Source of the DNA: Mesoplasma florum L1
Lineage (GTDB): Bacteria; Bacillota_I; Bacilli_A; Mycoplasmatales; Mycoplasmataceae
DNA: 32,000 bases
Reading direction: 5' to 3'
Assembly (NCBI RefSeq): GCF_000008305.1
Contig: NC_006055.1
Span: 360,001 to 392,000, forward strand
This document shows, piece by piece, positions 5,614-27,242 of this stretch. A program made the translations under genes and the position numbers. The notes under the pieces are model-generated. The model ran no database searches and had not been told where the DNA came from. It worked only from the letters and a program-made list of their open reading frames with translations. Every line of letters begins with the position of its first letter. The stretch's first letter is position 1.

Positions 5614-5653
5614 TGTAGTACTTATGGCATGATTTCCTAAGTACTACATTTTT
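5614..5653 (+). terminator. Rho-independent terminator after the beta-glucoside operon
   Basis: Perfect 11-bp stem: tgtagtactta (5614-5624) pairs with taagtactaca (5638-5648). The loop is 13 nt and is followed by ttttt. Confidence 0.8.
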
Positions 5654-5693
5654 GTTTAAAAGTATGAGAAAATTAACAAAACATGGAGAACAA

Positions 5694-8411
5694 ATGAAAG
5701 AAAAACTATTTACAAATAAAGATGAACAAAAATTACTAGAAGAAATAAATAATGAAATATTAACTTCTAATGAAGTTTATTTAATTTATCCTTTTATATC
5801 TAAAAGTATCCTTAATAAAATAGCTCCAACTTTTGAATTCTGTGCAAAAAACAATATTCAAATTAAAATTATCTCAACAACATTTGATGATCTAGCTCAA
5901 TATAATAATTTGAATGAACTTAAACTATTAGCTGATAAGTATTCTAATATCAAAATAAAAATAGAAGATAACTTAGAAAGAACTAGTGAAAGAATTCATA
6001 TAAAAGCTTCAATTTTTAAACGAAATCATGAATTATCAACTGCAATTATGGGTTCTTCTAATTTAACTGTTAAGGGAATGATTTCTGGAAGAGAATGAAA
6101 TATTAAATTAACAGAACAAAATAATAAAGAATTAATTAATAAAATGATTAATGAATTTGATAATTTATGAAATGAAGAATTTGTTGATTTTTCAAATGAG
6201 TTTGAAAGAGAATTATTAATTCAAAAGATTAAAGAAAACCAGCAAGCAGTAGTTCAATCAAAAATAGAATTATTATCTAATAATTTAACTAAAAAATACT
6301 TATATAAATTTCAAAAAGAAATTATTGATAAACTAAGTTATCGAAGACATATTAATAAAAATAAAAACTTAGTCATTATGGCCACAGGAACAGGCAAAAC
6401 ACTAGTTTCTGCATTTGATTACAAAAGACAATCAGGACAAGCTAAAAAGGACCTTAAAATCCTATTTTTAGCACATCAAAGAGAAATAGTTGACCAAGCA
6501 ATCAAAACTTATCGCCATGTGCTTGAGAATAATAAATTTGGTGAAGTTATGTATGATGGAAGTATTAATAGTGAAAAACCAATTCACCTATTTGCAACAA
6601 TTCAAACCTTGTCCACAAGATTGAATAAATTCAAACCAAACGATTTTGACATTATTGTATATGATGAAGCTCATCATATAGCAGCAAATACTTTTGATAA
6701 AGTATTTAACTATTTTAAACCTCAACAAATCTTAGGTTTAACAGCAACTCCTGAAAGAGAAGACAATAAAGATATTAAAGCATATTTTGATGATGAATAT
6801 GCTACTGAATTAAGACTATGAGATGCTATTGATCAAAAACTATTATGTCCATTTGATTATTATTGTATAGATGATACTAATACTAATTTACAAGGAGTTA
6901 ATTTAAACTCTGATAAAGATATTTTTAAAGTAGTTAACACTGATTCTAGAAATGAATTGTTATTTAAAACAATTGAAAAATATTTAGGTGTTTATGCAAG
7001 ACCAACAGCATTAATCTTTTGTGTTACAGTAGAACATGCTATTAATATATCAAATTACTTAAACTCAAAGAATTTAAAAGCAGAAGTTTTAACTTCACAA
7101 AATACAAAAGATCGTAAAAGAATCTTACATGAATTTAGTACAGGAAGAATTAACTATTTATGTGTTGTTAATATTTTTAATGAAGGAGTAGATATTCCTG
7201 AAATTAATACTATTATTTTGTTAAGACCAACAAATTCTAAAACAGTATATTTACAACAACTTGGTAGAGGTTTAAGAAAAACAGAACTTAAAAATAAACT
7301 AGAAGTATATGATCTAATTTCTAATATAGATAATAAATATGATATTACTTTAGGAATTAGAAATTTATTTAATCCTGCTATTAGAAGTAGTAAGTCAATT
7401 AGTGCTAAAGAAGGTTTACCTTATAATTGCACAATTAACTTAGAAAAGCATACTGAAGAAATTATTATTAACAGTATGAAGAGTTGATATTTAAATAAAA
7501 ACTCAATGAAATCATATATTGTTGAATATTATGAAAGATTTAAAGAAAAAGCTCTTAATAATATATTGAAAGATTATGATTTAACTTTAATAGATTTTTA
7601 TAATAATTTAGATAACTTATTTATACCAATTGCTAAACAAATTAATAACTTTAATCAAAATGAAAATAACACTAATAGAAACAAAAACATTTTAAAACAG
7701 TTTTTATTCTTAAATAATCATAAAATTATTGATTACTTTTATAAAAGACTATCAAACCAATTATCAAGTAATGAAATTAACTTAGACTTAGATAATTTAT
7801 TAATTACTTCTTGTTTATATGAAATAACTAGTTTTGATAAATTTTTAGATATTTATCCTAACTATTTAAAAATTAATGATTTAGTAAAAAACTTTATTGA
7901 TGAGCATAAAGTGATTGTAGAAGAGTTAGTAATGATTCTTAAATACAAATTAGATAATGAAACTTTAATTTTTGAAAACGAGTATGAAATAGGATTGAAT
8001 ATAAATTCAACTTATACTGTAAAACAAGTTTTATCATTAGTTAATCGTACTAACTTTTTACATTATCGAACTGAAATGAAAGTTTTGACATTTCAAGCAG
8101 GGTTTTTAACTTTTGATAACTCAAAACAAATCATTTTAGCTGATGAAGACAGTGATAATTATGGTAAAAAAACTAAATATGATGAATTGAATAATATATT
8201 CTATTGATCTTTACCTGAAAAAATGACAATTAAAAATAAAATAGTTAGTGATTTTGAAAATGAATATATTAAAAAATACTTGTTTATTCAAGATCAACAA
8301 AACGTCAACAAAAAGAACTTATATTTAAAGCTTTATAAATTTGTAGGTATTGGTAAATTTGAAAAAATGTTAATTGATGATGTTCTTACAGCTAAATTTA
8401 AGTTAAAATAA
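5694..8411 (+). CDS. PLD-family (HKD) nuclease domain + SF2 (ResIII/DEAH) helicase + C-terminal DUF3427-like domain, single 905-aa protein
   Basis: Track ORFs 5652-6098, 6378-6821, 6957-7487, 7506-8207 and 8223-8411 share frame 0 and join across TGA; I checked the gaps for real stops. The PLD motif is HIKASIF...GSSNLT (5997-6062). Helicase motif I is MATGTGKT (6378-6401), motif II is DEAHH (6663-6677), motif III is GLTATPER and motif VI is QQLGRGLR. The C-terminus (FYWSLPEK...YLFIQDQ...YKFVGIG) matches my recollection of the DUF3427 pattern. I prefer the ATG at 5694 (ggaga RBS at 5685-5689) over the track's TTG at 5652, which lies inside the upstream terminator. The ATG at 5664 remains an alternative. 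Confidence 0.8.
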
Positions 8412-10297: not shown

Positions 10298-12556
10298 ATG
10301 TCTATAAGAGATAATATAACAAAAAAACAATATGCATATAATTGTGTAGAACATGAAAGAATTTTTTCTATTGAGTCAAACTATGCTATTGCATTAAGAT
10401 TAAGTGACGTTTGAGAAGAAGGCAATAAGCTTTATGTGGAAGTTACTTTTAATAATTTTCAAAAAGCTTATTTATCATTTGCTGAATATGAAAATGGAAT
10501 AGTTAATATAAGATATTGACAAAAACAAATCCCAGTAAATAGATATTATGATAAAAACCATGAAAACATGGTCACAACAAAAATAAAATATAAAAATGAT
10601 AAAAATGAAATAGTAATTTCATTAAAAAATGGTGAAAATATTATTATTACAAAAAATAAATTCCAATTAGCATTAGTAGACGTTAATGGTGAGATAAAAA
10701 CAAAAACTTCTTTAAGACCAGGATGAGATCATTTAGAAGGATATTGCACACCACCTTTAGGATTTAAAATTGATGATAATATTCAAAAGCCATTTATGAC
10801 AATGCAGTTAGCTAGTGAAGAGTTAATTTATGGGTTAGGTGAAAAATTTAACAATTTTGTTAAAAACGGTGTTCAATCAACTATTTTTAATGTAGATAAT
10901 GAAGCTGTTTCAAATGGTGATTATGCTTATTCAGGAGTACCTTTAGTATATTCTTCAAGAAATTGAGGATTACTATTAAATACAGCTCATAAAACAGAGT
11001 GAGAAATTGGTTCACCAACAACCGAAAGTTTATCGTTTATGTCTACAGAAGAATGTTTAGATATAATTTTATTTTCAGGAGATTCATTAAAAGATTTAGT
11101 TAAACAATATACTTTATTTACAGGTAGAATAACTGGTGTTCCAGATGAAGCCTATGGATTATGATTAAACAGACTTTATTATCATAATAAAAAAGAATTA
11201 TTTACTGAAATTGAAAATTCAATAAAAAATGAGTATCCAATAGATGTATTTACATTGGATCCAAAATGAATCAAAAATAGATATACAAAATCATGTAATT
11301 TTGAATTCAATGACGATCAATTTGGAGATTTAGAAACAATGCTTAGCGAAGTCCACGAAAAAGGATTTAAAATGTGTTTCTGAATAAACCCTTATTTACA
11401 AATAGATAACTCTGAAATGTGAAATGAAGTTTACGAAAAAGGTTATCATGTTAAAAAAGCTGATGGAAGTATTGCACATATTTGAAGTGGTTTTGGTAAT
11501 TACCAAGAAACAGCTTCAGCTATAGATTTAACAAATCCAGATGCTGTAGTATATTGAAAAAATAAAATAAAAGATTTAATGTACAAAGGTGTAGATTTTA
11601 TTAAAACTGATTATGGTGATAGTGTTGATGAAGACGCTGTAATGTTTAACGGTGAAAAAGGAACAAATTTTAAAAATGCTTATGCTGAATTATATCTAAG
11701 ATATGTTTATGAAGCAACTCAAGAAGTGAAAGGTATAGATAAAGGTTTCTGTTTATCAAGACCTGGATATATTGGAACACAAAAATATGTTGGAAAATGA
11801 GCTGGAGATTCAGCATCAAGTTTTAATGAACTAAAAATGCAATTACTTTCTGGTTTATCAAATTCACTTTGTGGAACAGTAATGTGAGGAACTGATATAG
11901 GTGGCTTTTTAGATATTAACGCTAATGAAGAAGACTTGTATGCAAGATGATCACAATTTGGTTTATTGACACCTTTTTCAAGATACCATGGTGTTGGAGC
12001 AAGAGAACCTTGATATTTTGGAGAAAAAGACTTAAATATTTCTAGAGAAGCCGCTAAATTAAAAAGACAATTACTTCCTTACTATAAAATCTATGAAAAA
12101 GAAGCTATTGAATCAGGATTACCAATAATAAGACCTTTAGTTCTTGAATTCCCTAATGATACAATTGCTGCTAAAATAGATGATCAATTTATGTTGGGTG
12201 AAAATATTATGGTTGCTCCTATTTTAAGTAATAAAAAATATGAAAGACAAGTTTATTTCCCTGAAGGAAACTGAATTGATTTTTCAGATAAAAAAATTTA
12301 TGAAGGTAACAAAAAATATAATATTGATTGTCCAATTGAAAAAATACTAATCTTTGTTAAAGAAAATTCAATTATACCTATGATTAAAAATCCTATGTAT
12401 AAATTTAACAATATAGATAATGAAAAAATTAAATTAAGAATCTATGGAAATGTTTTAAATGAAACATTAAAATTTAGAATAAATGACAAAGACTACTCTG
12501 TTGAAGTGAGAGACAACAAAATAGTTAATGAAAATGAAAAATTCGAAGTAGAATAA
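10298..12556 (+). CDS. GH31 alpha-glucosidase / alpha-xylosidase family protein (752 aa)
   Basis: ATG at 10298 follows the RBS gtgaggtg. The long frame-2 ORF is interrupted only by TGA; only one piece (11579-11800) appears in the track. GH31 signatures are FWINPY, the nucleophile region GVDFIKTDYGD, and KWAGDSASSF...MWGTDIGGF. TAA stop at 12554-12556. Confidence 0.85.
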
Positions 12557-15138: not shown

Positions 15139-15170
15139 AAAAACTAGAAGATATTAACTTCTAGTTTTTA
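15139..15170. terminator. Bidirectional rho-independent terminator shared by the convergent PTS and HEPN genes
   Basis: 11-bp stem: aaaactagaag (15140-15150) pairs with cttctagtttt (15158-15168). A-rich sequence lies 5' and T-rich sequence 3', so the hairpin works on both strands. The stop codon of the minus-strand gene (15168-15170) overlaps the stem. Confidence 0.75.
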
Positions 15171-15722
15171 TTTATCAAATTTAATTTTTACCTGATCAAC
15201 TAAATCTATTTCATTACCTGCCATATTTATTTCATTTTTAAAATTAGATTGATAGTTTTTAGTTAAGTTATTGTATAAGAAATTGATGTTCATTTGATTT
15301 TCTAAAATATTGTCTAAAATGATTGGTTTAAAGTGAGAAATCTGATTTCTTAATTCACGTATACCATCAAATTCATTACGAGAAATGATAGGTCTATCAT
15401 TGTATACACTTTGAATTTTATTTAAGTTTTTAAAATATAAATTTTGAGCTTCACTCATGTTAACGTTTTCTTTTAAAAAGAATTCTACATCTTTAACATC
15501 ACAATTCATTAAAACAGCTCTTATATATTCTTCAAAGAAACAAATATAACGATAAAGAATATATTTAAGTCTTAGATCATATTGAATAACAGCAGCTATT
15601 TTAGCATATTCATCAGTATTTAAATATTTAGCTATGTATTGATGATATTCAACACCTTTAAGTTCTTTATATTTATTATATGAATCTATTTCATTCTGAT
15701 TTTTAAATTTTATTTCAATCAT
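15168..15722 (-). CDS. HEPN-domain protein, Abi_2 (AbiD/AbiF)-like, 184 aa
   Basis: Intact ORF with a ggaga RBS. The Rx4H HEPN motif is ELRNQISH (R125-H130, nt 15333-15350). The upstream helix QYDLRLKYILYRYICFFEEYIRAVL resembles the conserved FDxxLRxxL...IE...R block of Abi_2 proteins (from memory, not searched). It is shorter than typical AbiD/F proteins of about 300 aa. Confidence 0.6.
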   Translation of the reverse strand: MIEIKFKNQNEIDSYNKYKELKGVEYHQYIAKYLNTDEYAKIAAVIQYDLRLKYILYRYICFFEEYIRAVLMNCDVKDVEFFLKENVNMSEAQNLYFKNLNKIQSVYNDRPIISRNEFDGIRELRNQISHFKPIILDNILENQMNINFLYNNLTKNYQSNFKNEINMAGNEIDLVDQVKIKFDK

Positions 15723-15788
15723 AGTATCTCCGATATCATAATTATCACATATTAAAACAAAAGTAGATTAATCTTTTAAATAAAGTAA

Positions 15789-15794
15789 TATAAT
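15789..15794 (+). promoter_or_regulatory. Candidate -10 box (TATAAT) for the TIR-like/TM gene pair
   Basis: Exact TATAAT lies 23 nt upstream of the ATG at 15817, in the 94-bp divergent intergenic region. Such matches are common in AT-rich DNA. Confidence 0.3.
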
Positions 15795-15816
15795 AAAATA
15801 AAAAATGGAGGAATAT

Positions 15817-16365
15817 ATGAATAAAAAAGTTTTTATTTCTTATTGGCATTCTGGTCATCAAATACAAAAAGATGAATTAGAAAAAACAGTAAGAGCTTCT
15901 AGAAATATAAATAATTCTGTTCACATTGGAGATATTAATGAAAATCTACCAACTGAAAGAATTTATCAAATAATAAGAGATGATTATTTAAAAGATAGTC
16001 AGGTAACAATTGTTCTTCTAGGTTTACATACAAATCACCGTAAGCATATAGATAGAGAAATTGCTTCATCTATTAGAGAAACATTTTTAAATCCAAGAAA
16101 TGGGCTTGTTATTCTTGTTATGCCTGAGATGGTGCCTTATGTTTCAGCAGGGACATGAAATAGTGAAAGAATATGTGGACCCAGAATTTCAAAAAATATA
16201 AAAAATAACTATGCAGTTTTTGATTATTATCACAACGTAATTAATAACCCTTCAAAATTAAACGAATTAATTGAAAAAGCTTATTTAAATAGAAATAATG
16301 TACTACCCAATAATTCTGATCCTTACAGAAGTAACAATACAAGCTGTACAATATGTGGGAGATAA
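15817..16365 (+). CDS. TIR-like domain protein, ThsB/DUF1863-like (182 aa)
   Basis: ATG at 15817 lies 5 nt after the ggagg RBS; the track start at 15805 overlaps the RBS. One in-frame TGA at 16156. The N-terminal strand KKVFISYWH and the core SQVTIVLLGLHTNHRKHIDREIASSI match the pattern xVFISY...VTxVLIGxxTxxRxWVxYEIxxSI that I recall for DUF1863/ThsB TIR-like proteins. This includes a Glu (E81, nt 16057-16059) at the position of the catalytic glutamate. TAA stop at 16363-16365. Confidence 0.7.
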
Positions 16366-16368
16366 AAG

Positions 16369-17202
16369 ATGAAAATAGAGATTAATAATTTATGATATTT
16401 AGTAATAATTTTAATTATTATATTATTTTTTATTTTTATTCCTTTAATAATAAAAAGTATTAAACTAAAATTAAAAAATAATAAAAACTTAAAACAAACT
16501 AAACAATCATTTAAAAATCTTTTAGATAATAAAGATTTAAGTTTAAATAATAAAATCTTTTTTAAAAGAGAAGATAAAAAATTAAATTTACATCTTAAAG
16601 AACTTATTGGTTCAAGTTCACTTTCAAGTTCAGTTAAAACAAATTTAGATTTTAAAATAGTTACATTTGAGATTCAATCAAATTTACCTGAAAAAATAAA
16701 TAATAGACAAATTTCTTGAAAAGCATTCACAGCGATTATAACTTCTGTTATAACAAATGATTCAAGAGGCGATACTGCAGAAGCAGTTAATTCAATTTAT
16801 CAATTATTTAAATTTTTAAAAAAACTTGTAATTGAAAGTGAGAATTCACCAATCATTCCATCAATGTTACTAAAAATAATAAATACAGATTTAAGGCCAA
16901 TATTAACTTTTACAAGAAGTTTTATGTTTTCTGATGCAGAAGGAAAAAATAAAGTTAAAAAAGATTTTGAAAACCAAGAAGAACAATTTTGAAATAAAAT
17001 TAATGATTTAAAAATTACTTTATTAGAGAGAAATGATTTAAAAATTTTATGTTTATTTTCTCAAAATTACATAACAACTGATGAAATTTATAATTTACTA
17101 AATATTAGCGATGAGTTGAAAAAGCAACTTATGTCTAAAAATAAAGAATCAAAAAAAATTATAGACGAAGTTGAAAAAGAAATAAAAAATTCAAAAATTT
17201 AA
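16369..17202 (+). CDS. Single-pass membrane protein of unknown function (277 aa), probably translationally coupled to the TIR-like gene; absent from the supplied ORF track
   Basis: ATG at 16369 lies 3 nt after the TIR stop. Frame 1 stays open to the TAA at 17200-17202, with three in-frame TGA codons (16393, 16717, 16990). The N-terminal TM helix is WYLVIILIIILFFIFIPLII, followed by a K-rich juxtamembrane stretch. The C-terminal region of about 240 aa contains no motif I recognise, including SIR2, Macro or SLOG signatures. A terminator follows immediately. Confidence 0.65.
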
Positions 17203-17215
17203 GTAAATTTTATAA

Positions 17216-17247
17216 ACAAAGAACTTATTTAAACAAGTTCTTTTTTT
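17216..17247 (+). terminator. Rho-independent terminator after the TIR-like/TM pair
   Basis: 9-bp stem: aaagaactt (17218-17226) pairs with aagttcttt (17235-17243). The loop is 8 nt and the T-run extends to 17247. Confidence 0.75.
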
Positions 17248-17295
17248 GTTTGAGATTTATTTGTTATAAAATATATAAATAAAAAGGGTGAGAAG

Positions 17296-19527: not shown

Positions 19528-20155
19528 AAAACAAACGTATTTAAAATATTTAGCAACAGCTTCAGGATTATTCTTTTTAAGTTCATTATTGGTTAAATAT
19601 TTTGATTTTAAAAAAGGTGTGTTTGAAGGAAATACAACAGCTTTATTAATAACAGAAATCATTTTATTTTTAATTGGTTGTTTATTATTAGGATTTTATT
19701 GATTTGTTAAATTTTATGATTTAAATAAAGAAAAAGAATATGTAATGACTAAAAAAGAAAAAATTTATTTTCTTAGTTCTTTAGGTTTATATTCATTAAG
19801 TTTAATTTTAACTATGATATTTATTATAGCTGCTCATAATATTGTTAATATAACTACATTGTTTTTTGTAATGATAGTATTTATATTATTAGGTTTAATA
19901 GTAGGATCTGTATTTGAAATGATTAGTCGTTTAGGATATCAAAGCTATGTAGCCAGAAAAGAATATGAACAAGCACAAATAATTAAAAAAGAACGTATCA
20001 AAAAAATGATTAGCGAAGATAAAAGTATAACTGAAGAAGAAGCTAAAACTATAGTTAGTACAAATAAAAAAAGAACAAAAGAAGCTGAAACATTATTGAA
20101 AGCTGATATTGTTAAAAAGAAAAAAGAAAAAGACACTAATCCTTTTAAAGATTAA
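19520..20155 (+). CDS. Hypothetical 4-TM membrane protein with a K/E-rich C-terminal tail (211 aa)
   Basis: Track ORFs 19520-19702 and 19745-20155 are in the same frame and join across the TGA at 19700. The ATG overlaps the recD2 stop by 8 nt. There are two similar 2-TM halves followed by a charged tail. I recognise no family. Confidence 0.55.
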
Positions 20156-23483: not shown

Positions 23484-24404
23484 TTATTCTCCTGCACTTT
23501 CAACTTTTTCAGATTTTTCTCATTTTTTATATTTTCATATTCCAAAACCTAAGCATGTAGGTGAAACTACAACAGCTGATAACATAAAAATAAATGATAA
23601 TTGAGCCATTGTAAGACCTCTTGTAAAGTTTGGATGATATAAGTCGTCAATTGTTACATAATCAGCAACATCTTCAACTATTAAATTTTTGTCTACAAAC
23701 GGATTTTGTAAACTTTGAATACTAATTGCATATTTGATTGAATCAATTTGTTGATTTAAAAATCATACCTTGTTATTCACTAGTTTTGTTCCTGGTGATT
23801 GTTTTACTGTAATTCCTGTCAAACCAGGACCAGTAGATTCAATTAAATCTTCATATTCATCTTGATCTCATACTGATTGTTGCTTAATTGCATTTTCTCT
23901 TAAATCGCTTGAAAACATTTCACTAATTCCATTTTTATGAAAAATTCATTGAGTACCAGTATTAACATAACCATATGATTGAAATTCTGATGCAATAGCT
24001 TGATCAAATTTAATCATATCTGTAGCAATGTCATAAAAATCAATATTTTGTTTTTGATCAATAACTGGTTGTCATCTTTCTGTATATCAATCATTTGTAA
24101 AATCAGTATATAAAGGTGTAAATTTGTCCTTTTCAGCTGCATTAAAAGAATCAATTGTTGAGATAGCATCAGCTAAATATGAAGTTCTTATAACGTTATG
24201 CATAATTGGTTCATATAATGGACTTTCTGCGTCTAAAACATACTTGTCTTTTGGCATAATAATTTGTAATTGTTTTTTAACTGAGTTAATAAATCTAATA
24301 GATTCAATTCCAAGTCCTGGTATAGTAGAGGCGACAGCACCAATACCGTATAAAGAAGATATCACAATAAGTGTTATCCCTTGTTTCTTAAGTCCAAACT
24401 TCAT
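23484..24404 (-). CDS. Hypothetical membrane protein with N- and C-terminal TM helices (306 aa); first gene of the lipase/lipoprotein operon
   Basis: Track ORF 24087-24404 extends across 7 TGA codons to the TAA at 23484-23486; I checked every triplet. The N-terminal TM is GITLIVISSLYGIGAVAS and the C-terminal TM is MAQLSFIFMLSAVVVSPTCLGFGIW. The stop lies 1 nt before the ATG of the lipase gene. The RBS is agagga. Confidence 0.6.
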
Positions 24405-24452
24405 AAAAAATTTTCCTCTTTTATAACTTTCGTTTAAATAATATTAAGTATG

Positions 24453-24480
24453 ATTATACATTAAATAATTATATTTTCAA
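24453..24480 (-). promoter_or_regulatory. Candidate sigma-70-type promoter of the membrane/lipase/lipoprotein operon (TTGAAA - 16 nt - TGnTATAAT)
   Basis: The minus strand reads ttgaaa (24480-24475), then atataattatttaa, then tgtataat (24460-24453), about 45 nt upstream of the ATG at 24404. The -35 element lies inside direct-repeat copy 1. Confidence 0.4.
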
Positions 24481-24494
24481 AACTTTGTTGTTTT
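24461..24494. repeat. 34-bp direct repeat, copy 1 (orphan duplicate of the last 10 sense codons plus stop of dinB)
   Basis: ttaaataattatattttcaaaactttgttgtttt is identical to 26130-26163. The flanks on both sides are unrelated. Confidence 0.9.
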
Positions 24495-24971
24495 GCAAAA
24501 CAATAAATTAAAGGTTGAAAAGTATTAAAGCTAATAAAATTTTTCTAATAATGGGAAACTCACATTTTTTAAAACTATTTTACTTTTAAGAATTTATAAT
24601 AAATAAGAGTTTCTTAATTCGTTTCTTAATTCATTTAGAAGTAAGTCAATTATTATACTAATATAAAAAATTCAACATATTTATATTCTTTTCGTATTTC
24701 ATTACATTTAAGATTATAAATTGATTCCTGTTTAACGATTTATTTTCTCAATCAAGATTTATAATTATTTAATAAAATTATATTTACTTTAAATTAAAGT
24801 ATCAATAAAATTTAAAGTAAAGTAAAAAAATATGTTGTAAAAAATTAGACAAGAAAATATTAGATAAAATTATATATTTTTTCTTGCTATATTTTTTAAA
24901 ATAGTGACTTTAAACTTACAAAAATATTTTAAGTTAACGAATAAAATAATAATTAAAAAAAGGAAAAATAT

Positions 24972-25862
24972 ATGAAAAAAGAATTTAACAAAGAAATCAT
25001 AAAATTATCACCTAATAGAATAAATACGTTATTAGTAATTCAAAATAATCATTTTTTTGAAAGTGAGATTTTAAATAGACTAATTGACTTTATTGAAAAA
25101 ATGCAAGTTTTTGAAAAAGTTTTTGAAAATGTTTTTGAAAAACATTATTCTTTGCATAAATTAATTAAACAATCATTTAGTTATTGCAATTCTTTATTTA
25201 TTTTAAGGTCAGCAATAGAAAGTAATAAAATTGATGAAAAACTATTGTTTGAAAATTTTAGCAGTTTAACTTGATTATATTGTAAAAACATAATTTTCTT
25301 AATTAATGAAGAAAATGAAAATAATAAAGAAAAAAATTATAAATTAGGAAGTGATTTTTTAGAAGCTAATATTAATTTTTTAAGTTTTTTAAGAAATTTA
25401 TTTTCTCATTTCTACTTAGATTCAATAACTATTCATAAACTTTTAAATTCTATATATGAATTTAATTTTTATAATAATAAAATTATTAATGATTTAGTTA
25501 ATTCAAAACCAAATAAGTTATGTATGTTTGATTTGCTAAACTCAAATAAAAAAACAATAACACTTTGTAAAATACAAAATAAATATTTGGATGAGGCAAT
25601 TTTAAATTTTAATAAAAATGATTTTGATGAAAATATGGAAGAAGTTTTATATGTAAAAGACGTAGATAAAATAAGAATTAAACTTTATGATGAAATCTTT
25701 AAGAATTTTCAAGAAAATAAAATAAATATTTTTAGTAATCCAGATCACTGAATAACATATTTAAGATTAAGTGATAATTATTTTTTAAGAATAGAAATGT
25801 ACCCTTTTATTCATTCATTAATTGAATATTTTGAAATCTTTTATAATATTTTGAAAAAATAA
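24972..25862 (+). CDS. HEPN-domain (Rx4H) Abi-like protein, 296 aa
   Basis: Track ORFs 24972-25274 and 25524-25751 are in frame 0 and join across TGA codons at 25272 and 25749. TAA stop at 25860-25862. The HEPN motif is FLRNLFSH (R141-H146, nt 25392-25409), resembling the LRNxxxH motif of the 15168-15722 protein. It is otherwise a helical, low-complexity, N/K-rich sequence. Confidence 0.5.
25117..25152 (+). repeat. 3 x 12-bp in-frame tandem repeat (gtttttgaaaaa/t) encoding VFEK-VFEN-VFEK
   Basis: Read directly from the sequence, inside the HEPN ORF. Confidence 0.85.
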
Positions 25863-26129
25863 AGTTGACTATAAGTTAAATAATTAATGAAAACAATAAA
25901 GTGAATAAGTTAATATTTTAGAAAATATGTTAAAGAAAAATAAGAAAAGTAATGCAATATTCTATTGCATATCTTATTTAAAGTAGATTTAATTACTAGA
26001 ACTTGCATGAATGAAAAAGAAATTAAGCATCATAGTAAATAAAAATTTAGTTATTTTCTAAATAGTTTTATTAACTATCTTTCTTTTATGAAAAATACCA
26101 ATAAAATAAAAATTAAATTATTTATAGTT

Positions 26130-26163
26130 TTAAATAATTATATTTTCAAAACTTTGTTGTTTT
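26130..26163. repeat. 34-bp direct repeat, copy 2 (the functional 3' end of dinB)
   Basis: Identical to 24461-24494. On the minus strand it encodes ...QQSFENIII*. Confidence 0.9.
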
Positions 26164-27242
26164 ACCAGTTTATCCTTTTCGATTAAATTAGTTACTCCAA
26201 TTCCAATTAAAGAAATAGATTCACCATCATAAATATCATCTAAAATAACTTTAACTCTTGAGTATAATTTTTCTAAACTATCTGTATATTCGTTAAAAGT
26301 TTCACTATATGTTCTTCTTTTTTTTTGTTCTTTTTTGTCAAAATTAATTTCTTGATTATAAAACTTAATTGACAATGTTACAGTTTTTGCAAGAATATTG
26401 TTCTTTTGCATTCTCAATACAACTTTTTCTGCTAAATTAAACAATATTTCTTCAATATCTTCAATTGCCATATTTTTCTTATCAAAAGTTTTTTCTTTAG
26501 ATATTGATTTAACTGATGTTTCTCAATATGCTATTTCATCATTTTTAATTCCATGTAATTTTTGATACATTTTTTGTCCAGATAAACCAAAACTATCAGC
26601 TATTATTTTTTCATCAAGTTTCACAAAATCATTTACTGTTTTAACGTTTAATAACTCCATTTTTTCCAAAGATGAACTACCAACACCAATAACATCTTTG
26701 ATTGATTTATTTCATATTAAAGTTTTAAAATTTTCTTTTGTTATTATTGTTATTCCATTAGGTTTTTTCATATCACTACCCATTTTTGAAAATAACCTTG
26801 TAAAACTAGCACCTATACTACAAGTTAAACCTGTTTCTTGATAAACTGCAGCTTGAATAGCTAAACATAAATTTTGAACATTTCCATATTTCTCTCAAAT
26901 ATTAGTAGCGTCAATAAAACATTCATCGATACCTAAAACCTCTACCTTATATGTAAACTGTTCTTTTATTAAATTAAATATTCTTTCGCTATATTCTTCA
27001 TATAGATCTCTATTACCTTCTTTAATTATTAATTCACCATAAGCTAGTTGTTTTGCTTCAAATATAGGCGTTCCTGCTTTTATCCCATATTTTCTAGCAT
27101 CATATGAAGCTGCAACAATAATACTTCTATCATTATTTCTTGCTACAACAACTGGTTTATTTTTTAAAGTCTTATCATGAGCTTGCTCACAACTTGCAAA
27201 AAAAGCATCCATATCAAGATGCAAAATTACTTTTTGATTCAT
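26130..27242 (-). CDS. dinB: DNA polymerase IV (Y-family), 370 aa
   Basis: Track ORFs 26895-27242 and 26130-26471 share one frame and join across TGA. The N-terminus ILHLDMDAFFASCEQ carries the catalytic Asp motif, followed by VVVA...IIVAASYDARKYGIKAG, GIDECFID and CSIGASFTRLFSKMGSDMKKPNG. The RBS is aaaggagg. Confidence 0.9.

Follow-up and report, generated by a model that had tools for sequence, protein, structure and literature searches.

Unrelated gene cassettes share a single insertion point at the end of dinB in Mesoplasma

Three unrelated gene cassettes occupy one and the same insertion point behind dinB, the gene for DNA polymerase IV, in different members of the genus Mesoplasma, and this is the main new result of our analysis. 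We started from a 32-kb stretch of the Mesoplasma florum L1 chromosome (NC_006055.1, positions 360,001 to 392,000; 24.5% GC), in the following called the window, where a 1635-bp cassette carrying a single gene, mfl327, separates dinB from a lipase/lipoprotein operon headed by mfl326. The conclusion that this cassette was inserted with duplication of the dinB tail, and that it is non-autonomous, is well supported, and so is the explanation given below for the duplication. The locus belongs to a known kind, islands that lack an integrase and are bordered by a duplicated gene end, while its reuse to the single base and its occurrence in a recombinase-poor genome are unusual. Work is under way to develop M. 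florum into a near-minimal chassis, and mobile elements are considered essentially absent from its genome. At the locus described here, a reusable, precise insertion point has taken up three unrelated foreign genes, leaving dinB and the operon undamaged. All genes were read with genetic code 4 and are intact only if TGA is translated as Trp. Published L1 coordinates equal window positions plus 360,000 (mfl326, 383484-384404; mfl327, 384972-385862; mfl328/dinB, 386130-387242).

Results and discussion

The cassette is bracketed by a 34-bp direct repeat, TTAAATAATTATATTTTCAAAACTTTGTTGTTTT, located at 24461-24494 and 26130-26163. The two copies are free of mismatches and the sequence is unrelated on either side of both, so that the repeat is exactly 34 bp long. 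It is the sole long perfect direct repeat of the window, where allowing up to three mismatches revealed no third copy; 100 shuffles produced no match. Copy 2 (26130-26163, minus strand) is the genuine 3' end of dinB (mfl328; 26130-27242, minus strand), which encodes the Pfam domains IMS and IMS_C and is the final gene of its transcription unit. Read in code 4, this copy consists of one extra base (the last of a Val codon), the ten final sense codons of dinB (KQQSFENIII) and TAA. An initial annotation of this DNA had described the repeat with its unrelated flanks and had assigned copy 2 to the last ten sense codons plus stop of dinB; both descriptions were confirmed, the 34-mer occurring exactly and only twice. 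The tail follows a pattern, QQS[FL]xx[IV], that is conserved across the compared species and may be the beta-clamp-binding tail typical of Pol IV. Beyond copy 2, in the direction of dinB, cassette DNA stands where the -10 box of a promoter would be. Copy 1 (24461-24494, minus strand) is an orphan dinB tail, situated 56 bp upstream of the mfl326 ATG.

Genomic contexts from other strains and species were retrieved through dinB orthologs obtained by protein search. In five M. florum genomes (CP022514, CP023735, CP022505, CP022512 and CP022508), the dinB TAA is followed directly by TGTATAAT and the mfl326 start codon lies 50-57 bp further on. The same empty, single-copy site is present in M. tabanidae, M. 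melaleucae and M. chauliocola as well as in an uncultured lineage (dinB 83% identical). The junction in CP022508 corresponds to the junctions of the window minus one repeat and the cassette. Since empty sites occur both within M. florum and in outgroups, dinB ancestrally abutted the operon and the cassette is an insertion. The comparison with related strains thereby bears out the earlier proposal that dinB originally adjoined the lipase/lipoprotein operon and that a 1635-bp segment was inserted there with duplication of its target.

The cassette (24495-26129), which is missing from the empty-site strains and the outgroup species, has a GC content of 16.5%, compared with 24.5% for the window and about 25-29% for the flanking genes. 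It contains one intact open reading frame of 296 codons and noncoding arms of 477 bp and 267 bp. CP022506 has this cassette too, again between both repeats, with 6 differences in 1635 bp (99.6% identity). The two strains that carry it do not form a clade in neighbor-joining trees of the flanks (5 kb and 4 kb) and are interspersed with four empty-site strains in a group that is more than 99% identical. This pattern implies that the cassette was either gained and then cleanly lost or else exchanged through homologous recombination. If the cassette were excised as a circle, the junction would read from the cassette end ...ATTGTTTTGC through the 34-mer into AACTATAAAT... at the other end.

Two further cassettes were found at this site. 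M. florum strains with the dinB variant P0010 carry a 1033-bp cassette at the same position, encoding a 244-aa orphan protein antisense to dinB and flanked by a 26-bp duplication, AAAGTTTTGAAAATATAATTATTTAA. In M. entomophilum and M. coleopterae, the cassette measures 1.43 kb and contains a gene for an ASCH-domain protein (PF04266, E 1.5e-22); the duplication at its two sides is 39 bp long and includes two mismatches. All three duplications stop at the A of the dinB TAA (or possibly, for the ASCH cassette, one T later), while their opposite end varies, giving lengths of 26, 34 and 39 bp. The GC contents of the three cassettes are 16.5%, 19.2% and 22.8%. No sequence common to the three was detected above AT-rich noise, and they have no arms in common beyond the repeat. 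In the ASCH lineage, the orphan copy keeps the bases of M. tabanidae and the dinB copy has changed twice. Because it retains the old bases, the orphan tail is a fossil of the dinB end at the time of insertion, and such a copy can be read as a dated record of that sequence. Both mfl327 and the ASCH gene contain TGA=Trp codons, which point to Mollicute donors.

As a separate observation, the downstream arm of the ASCH cassette in M. entomophilum CP022507 (about 12040-12135 of our locus L083) contains a short open frame ending in ...ELYRKYRPSNFGDIAGLKIT and a stop codon, which we take to resemble a DnaX N-terminus; a search could not confirm this, the fragment being too short. If correct, this unconfirmed DnaX-like fragment would suggest that the ASCH cassette is a scrap of another Mollicute chromosome.

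The reason why an insertion at this point would need to duplicate its target becomes apparent from the operon promoter. Mfl326 (23484-24404, minus strand), a 306-aa membrane or secreted protein, opens the mfl326-mfl325 (GDSL lipase)-mfl324 (lipoprotein) operon. Its transcription unit extends from 384445 to about 380131, and its primary start at 384444/5 on the minus strand and TATAAT box at 384452-58 have been mapped in L1 (PMC7745072 supplement). In window coordinates, the promoter spans 24444-24480 (minus strand), with the start at 24444/5; its -10 box TATAAT (24453-24458) and -35 box TTGAAA (24475-24480) are separated by 16 nt. Given that the start and -10 box are mapped experimentally, the -35 box is placed inside copy 1, which thus forms the upstream half of the promoter; the assignment of the -35 box to copy 1 in the initial annotation agrees with these published positions. 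In the empty-site genomes, the promoter spans the dinB stop codon, with the -10 box beginning two bases past it, and TTGAAA (or TTGATA) encodes part of F-E-N (or F-D-N) of the polymerase. The dinB tail and the mfl326 promoter therefore overlap, the last about 20 bp of dinB being the -35 half. As a result, an insertion cannot part the two undamaged unless the overlap is duplicated, and the locus provides a clear example of overlapping signals, a gene end that is also half a promoter, forcing duplication on insertion.

Both junctions of the L1 cassette show inverted symmetry. An inverted repeat, AATTATTTA-AAACTA-TAAATAATT, lies across the left junction (26116-26139, minus strand), one arm belonging to the repeat end and the other to the cassette's opening bases; it has been published as a weak predicted dinB terminator (dG -3.3; PMC7745072 supplement). 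A 9-bp inverted repeat spanning a junction is expected at about 0.5-0.8% of random positions. At the other junction, the end of copy 1 and the end of the cassette form a perfect 16-nt palindrome, TTGTTTTGCAAAACAA (24488-24503), which was noticed after the fact. The 244-aa cassette likewise has junction-spanning inverted repeats, of 7-9 bp. These structures could represent a terminator or the footprint of a joining reaction. A match between the junction palindrome and a CRISPR repeat (E 0.19) was sub-threshold and judged to be due to chance. Two other observations concern the same region. The rare 10-mer palindrome TTTTGCAAAA has two copies in the window, one of them (24491) at the right junction of the cassette, and a further copy lies in the unrelated 244-aa cassette, 16 nt in from its left end (locus L087, 7129), which may be a coincidence. 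Further, copy 2 and the cassette together form a promoter-like hybrid (26100-26155, minus strand), in which TTGAAA of copy 2 is followed, after a 17-nt spacer, by TATAAA at the start of the cassette. The hybrid faces into the cassette, in antisense orientation to mfl327, and the published map lists no start there.

Searches for a source of the cassettes and for signs of mobility were negative. The cassette DNA had no match among plasmid, phage, viral and metagenome collections, and the 26-mer core of the repeat had none in metagenome or viral contigs. The mfl327 protein and the 244-aa protein gave nothing in plasmids, phages and viral contigs, and across the plasmid, phage, viral, metagenome and protein searches the cassette was not found in any genomic context other than the dinB site. 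Terminal inverted repeats of the window's cassette did not rise above the AT-rich background, to which we also attribute many weak inverted repeats within it and a similarity of about 150 nt (68%) between two cassette arms. No open reading frame or pseudogene remnant was recognizable in the cassette arms, and Rfam and tRNA scans of the cassettes yielded no RNA family and no tRNA.

No integrase, transposase or resolvase was identified in the 32-kb window and no integrase inside any of the three cassettes. The L1 gene table, as far as its annotation goes, has no entry with integrase, recombinase, transposase, xer or site-specific, while it lists RecA, RecU and ComEC. The earlier statement that neither integrase nor transposase lies in the cassette or nearby thus stands for the window and can be extended to the L1 gene table. 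No larger or integrase-bearing element was present at this site in any of the examined loci, which came from M. florum, M. entomophilum, M. coleopterae, M. tabanidae, M. melaleucae, M. chauliocola and the uncultured lineage. A transposon or insertion sequence with target-site duplication finds no support as an explanation: terminal inverted repeats above background and a transposase are lacking in the cassette, no transposase is found in the window, and the duplications, with one end fixed and lengths of 26, 34 and 39 bp, have no characteristic length. A general tail-duplication mechanism was tested at the two other variable islands of the window (a ThsB and a DUF4238 island, described below) and rejected, as neither has long flanking repeats. 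That these two nearby islands lack such repeats indicates that the duplication is peculiar to the place where two functions overlap.

We tentatively favor a recombinase-independent acquisition through illegitimate or short-homology joining, with selection for dinB and the promoter and with later RecA-dependent spread and loss, because no recombinases are shown, the other islands have no long repeats, and the cassettes look like unrelated Mollicute scraps. Foreign Mollicute DNA would have been taken up by the host and joined to the chromosome by its recombination and repair machinery, using illegitimate or short-homology recombination and no dedicated integrase or transposase. Only those products that duplicate the dinB tail would be viable, one copy ending dinB and the other standing before the -10 box. 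The cassette may then have spread between strains by homologous recombination in the conserved flanks, and recombination between the two 34-mers could account for its clean loss.

Several points weigh against this reading. The three unrelated cassettes share one end base, the A of TAA, while their other end is variable. Random joining followed by selection predicts scattered end points, and a fixed end therefore suggests a directed process or a cleavage hotspot. Identity that runs up to the end of the target gene, together with a variable inner boundary, is typical of integrase insertion into gene 3' ends. The junction-spanning inverted repeats are jointly commoner than the background, a feature noticed after the fact. 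Finally, the absence of recombinases in L1 is read from its annotation table.

Possible, if somewhat unlikely, is a site-specific origin in which the repeats are attL and attR of integrase-less elements, either decayed remnants resembling a cis-mobilizable element (CIME) or trans-mobilized satellites, with the recombinase located elsewhere and crossover in the shared 26 bp. Each element would bring a replacement dinB tail, hence identity would stop at the stop codon. CIMEs and other integrase-less islands that have att repeats on both sides and sit at the 3' end of a conserved gene are exemplified by Streptococcus thermophilus at fda. The shared features are foreign cargo set between direct repeats that copy a housekeeping gene's end, restoration of the target gene, the lack of integration and transfer genes inside, and cargo that differs between strains at the site. 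Consistent with att sites, the insertion point is the same to the base in three unrelated cassettes, identity always ends at TAA, and the identity block is not of one length in all elements, which is common where gene 3' ends are targeted. Integration of the att type by an unseen recombinase would account naturally for the common end point. The clean empty sites inside the same, more than 99% identical clade would be compatible with precise excision. By definition, CIMEs have lost their integration and transfer genes and kept attL and attR (PMC6323972). However, neither the three cassettes nor the window contain an integrase, and no entry of the L1 gene table is annotated as integrase or recombinase. 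A helper would be required; in none of the loci examined did a larger integrase-bearing element occupy the site, and a cognate one is not known here or in the genus. Further, each cassette is tiny, a single gene in 1.0-1.6 kb of DNA, the arms are unalike beyond the duplicated target, pseudogene remnants are not recognizable, and no convincing recombinase-type core is visible in the shared 26 bp. The initial annotation had likened the 34-mer to an att core and had suggested mobilization in trans or a decayed element. Reuse of the same base by three cassettes argues for a directed process, while the lack of a recombinase in the window or the L1 table, of common arms and of an integrase-bearing element at the site speaks against it.

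It is doubtful, but conceivable, that the base after the dinB stop is a site-specific capture point that operates by an unrecognized mechanism in genomes with no annotated integrase, transposase or Xer. Candidates would include an activity, encoded by the host or only transiently present, that nicks or recombines DNA, perhaps with the junction inverted repeats as guides. One end would be fixed between TTATTTAA and TG and the other would be variable, which would make the site a natural landing pad in a near-minimal bacterium. A site-specific process of this kind, if true, would represent an unknown integration route in recombinase-poor Mollicutes and at the same time a natural safe-harbor site for engineering.

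The location of the site brought up a further mechanism. The cumulative GC skew peaks and the gene strand switches from plus to minus at about 20.1 kb, between 20155 and 20169, which places the replication terminus inside the window, 4.3 kb from the cassette site. The cassette site itself lies at 48.5-50% of each complete genome. In integrative mobile elements exploiting Xer (IMEX), such as CTX, TLC and the gonococcal genetic island, XerCD acts at dif, and our locus shares with these the lack of an integrase, the position near the terminus and the one-sided stop of identity. IMEX attachment sites match dif in one arm and the center and diverge in the other arm (PMC5357621), resembling the one-sided repeat end seen here. 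In this scenario, the dinB tail/promoter region would be or overlap dif and host Xer would have inserted the cassettes. We nevertheless rejected it as very improbable: the L1 gene table has no annotated Xer, integrase or recombinase, no match to a Bacillus-type dif or other dif-like sequence was found in the window, and a functional dif present in two perfect copies would be unstable. In addition, the repeat evolves as ordinary coding sequence does, differing among species at third codon positions and in amino acids, unlike the conserved 28-bp dif. Least probable of all is that no insertion took place and that the arrangement reflects an ancient local duplication or an ancestral gene lost in other lineages; it would fit the confinement of the cassette to a single genomic context, which the initial annotation had named as a sign of local duplication, but the cassette is absent from several strains, outgroup species and many M. 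florum strains have a compact single-copy site, other lineages carry different cargo at the same point, the repeat is still perfect, and the cassette has 16.5% GC against about 25-29% in the flanking genes.

Apart from CIMEs and IMEX, two other known situations resemble this locus. In Campbell-type single-crossover integration, a homologous segment is likewise present once on each side of the insert and loss occurs by recombination between the copies. Here, however, the homology amounts to only 26-39 bp, and the model gives no reason why three unrelated circles should each have carried the dinB tail up to the stop codon. The locus also resembles chromosomal integration hotspots that contain no mobility genes and in which homologous recombination in conserved core-gene flanks exchanges accessory or defense genes, having conserved flanks (dinB and the mfl326 operon), strain-variable low-GC cargo of defense-like character, patchy presence within the species and other such sites nearby in the terminus region. 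It differs from them in its base-exact reuse and duplicated flank, whereas the other two variable sites of the window have no long duplication.

The cargo of the L1 cassette, mfl327 (24972-25862, plus strand), is a 296-aa orphan protein with TGA-encoded Trp residues at positions 101 and 260 and an RNLFSH motif (R-x4-H) at residues 141-146. It is 100% identical to AAT75684 of M. florum L1 and AGY41413 of W37. Searches of Pfam, NCBIfam, PADLOC and PHROGs matched no family, not even with E values up to 10 allowed, and a profile search of PDB sequences returned nothing relevant. When 1.84 billion representative proteins were searched exhaustively with HMMER, a single relative emerged, a 311-aa protein of M. 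lactucae (E 1e-6, 25% identity). Both proteins contain F[LM]RNL[FM]SH[FY], with R141, N142, S145 and H146 invariant (homolog P0018), and they also have in common a C-terminal block, W.TY..L..NYFLRI.MY.F, and both TGA-encoded Trp residues. The M. lactucae gene (CP024967; locus L099, 8001-12459) adjoins an AlwI-type restriction enzyme and two D12-class methyltransferases, and this block is flanked by two old M17 peptidase paralogs (72-88% identical), not by recent repeats. AlphaFold models of mfl327 from the single sequence and from a two-sequence alignment were mostly helical and unreliable (mean pLDDT 41.6 and 47.9), and the best Foldseek match in the PDB obtained from the unreliable model had an E of about 1. 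In published data for L1, mfl327 has 1-7 RNA-seq reads compared with hundreds in its neighbors, its protein was undetected and no start site is listed (PMC7745072 supplement). Mfl327 is thus almost silent in laboratory culture.

We consider mfl327 a candidate HEPN-like defense or toxin-type gene, which is a reasonable lead and not a finding. The R-x4-H motif expected from the HEPN/Abi-like label given in the initial annotation is present, while the label received no profile match in Pfam, NCBIfam, PADLOC or PHROG and the models were unusable. Similar to Abi_2 proteins (AbiD/AbiF-like, PF07751), mfl327 is small, has R-N-x3-H within a predicted helical region and stands in a defense-like context, as other defense-like genes are located near it in the window. 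It differs in having no significant profile match and only two family members, and any HEPN fold or activity is putative. It also counts against the functional assignment that it draws on one motif and the neighboring genes only. Together with its single homolog, mfl327 may constitute a tiny candidate defense family restricted to Mesoplasma.

Additional observations

The region around the terminus contains other strain-variable sites and defense-like genes. The 13-bp gap between the convergent gene ends at 20155 and 20169 is a variable site, holding a DUF4238 gene in CP022506 and CP022508 and genes for 195-202-aa proteins in M. melaleucae and M. chauliocola. A two-gene island at 15757-17259 (open reading frames 15805-16365 and 16369-17202) is absent from CP022506. 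Neither this island nor the DUF4238 island has long flanking repeats. The two-gene island encodes a ThsB-type TIR protein (PF08937, E 4e-17) and a protein of 277 aa that matches no family and has a membrane helix at its N-terminus; a recognizable ThsA is lacking, and the two genes may represent an atypical Thoeris-like pair. Adjoining the TIR island, a 184-aa protein (15168-15722, minus strand) that is present in L1 and CP022506 carries an RNQISH motif and a sub-threshold match to Abi_2 (E 0.05), making it a second HEPN-motif protein of the window. Finally, a stand-alone 919-aa protein (5652-8411, plus strand), which combines an N-terminal PLD/NgoFVII-type nuclease with a ResIII/DEAD helicase, is defense-like and is also encoded near the terminus.

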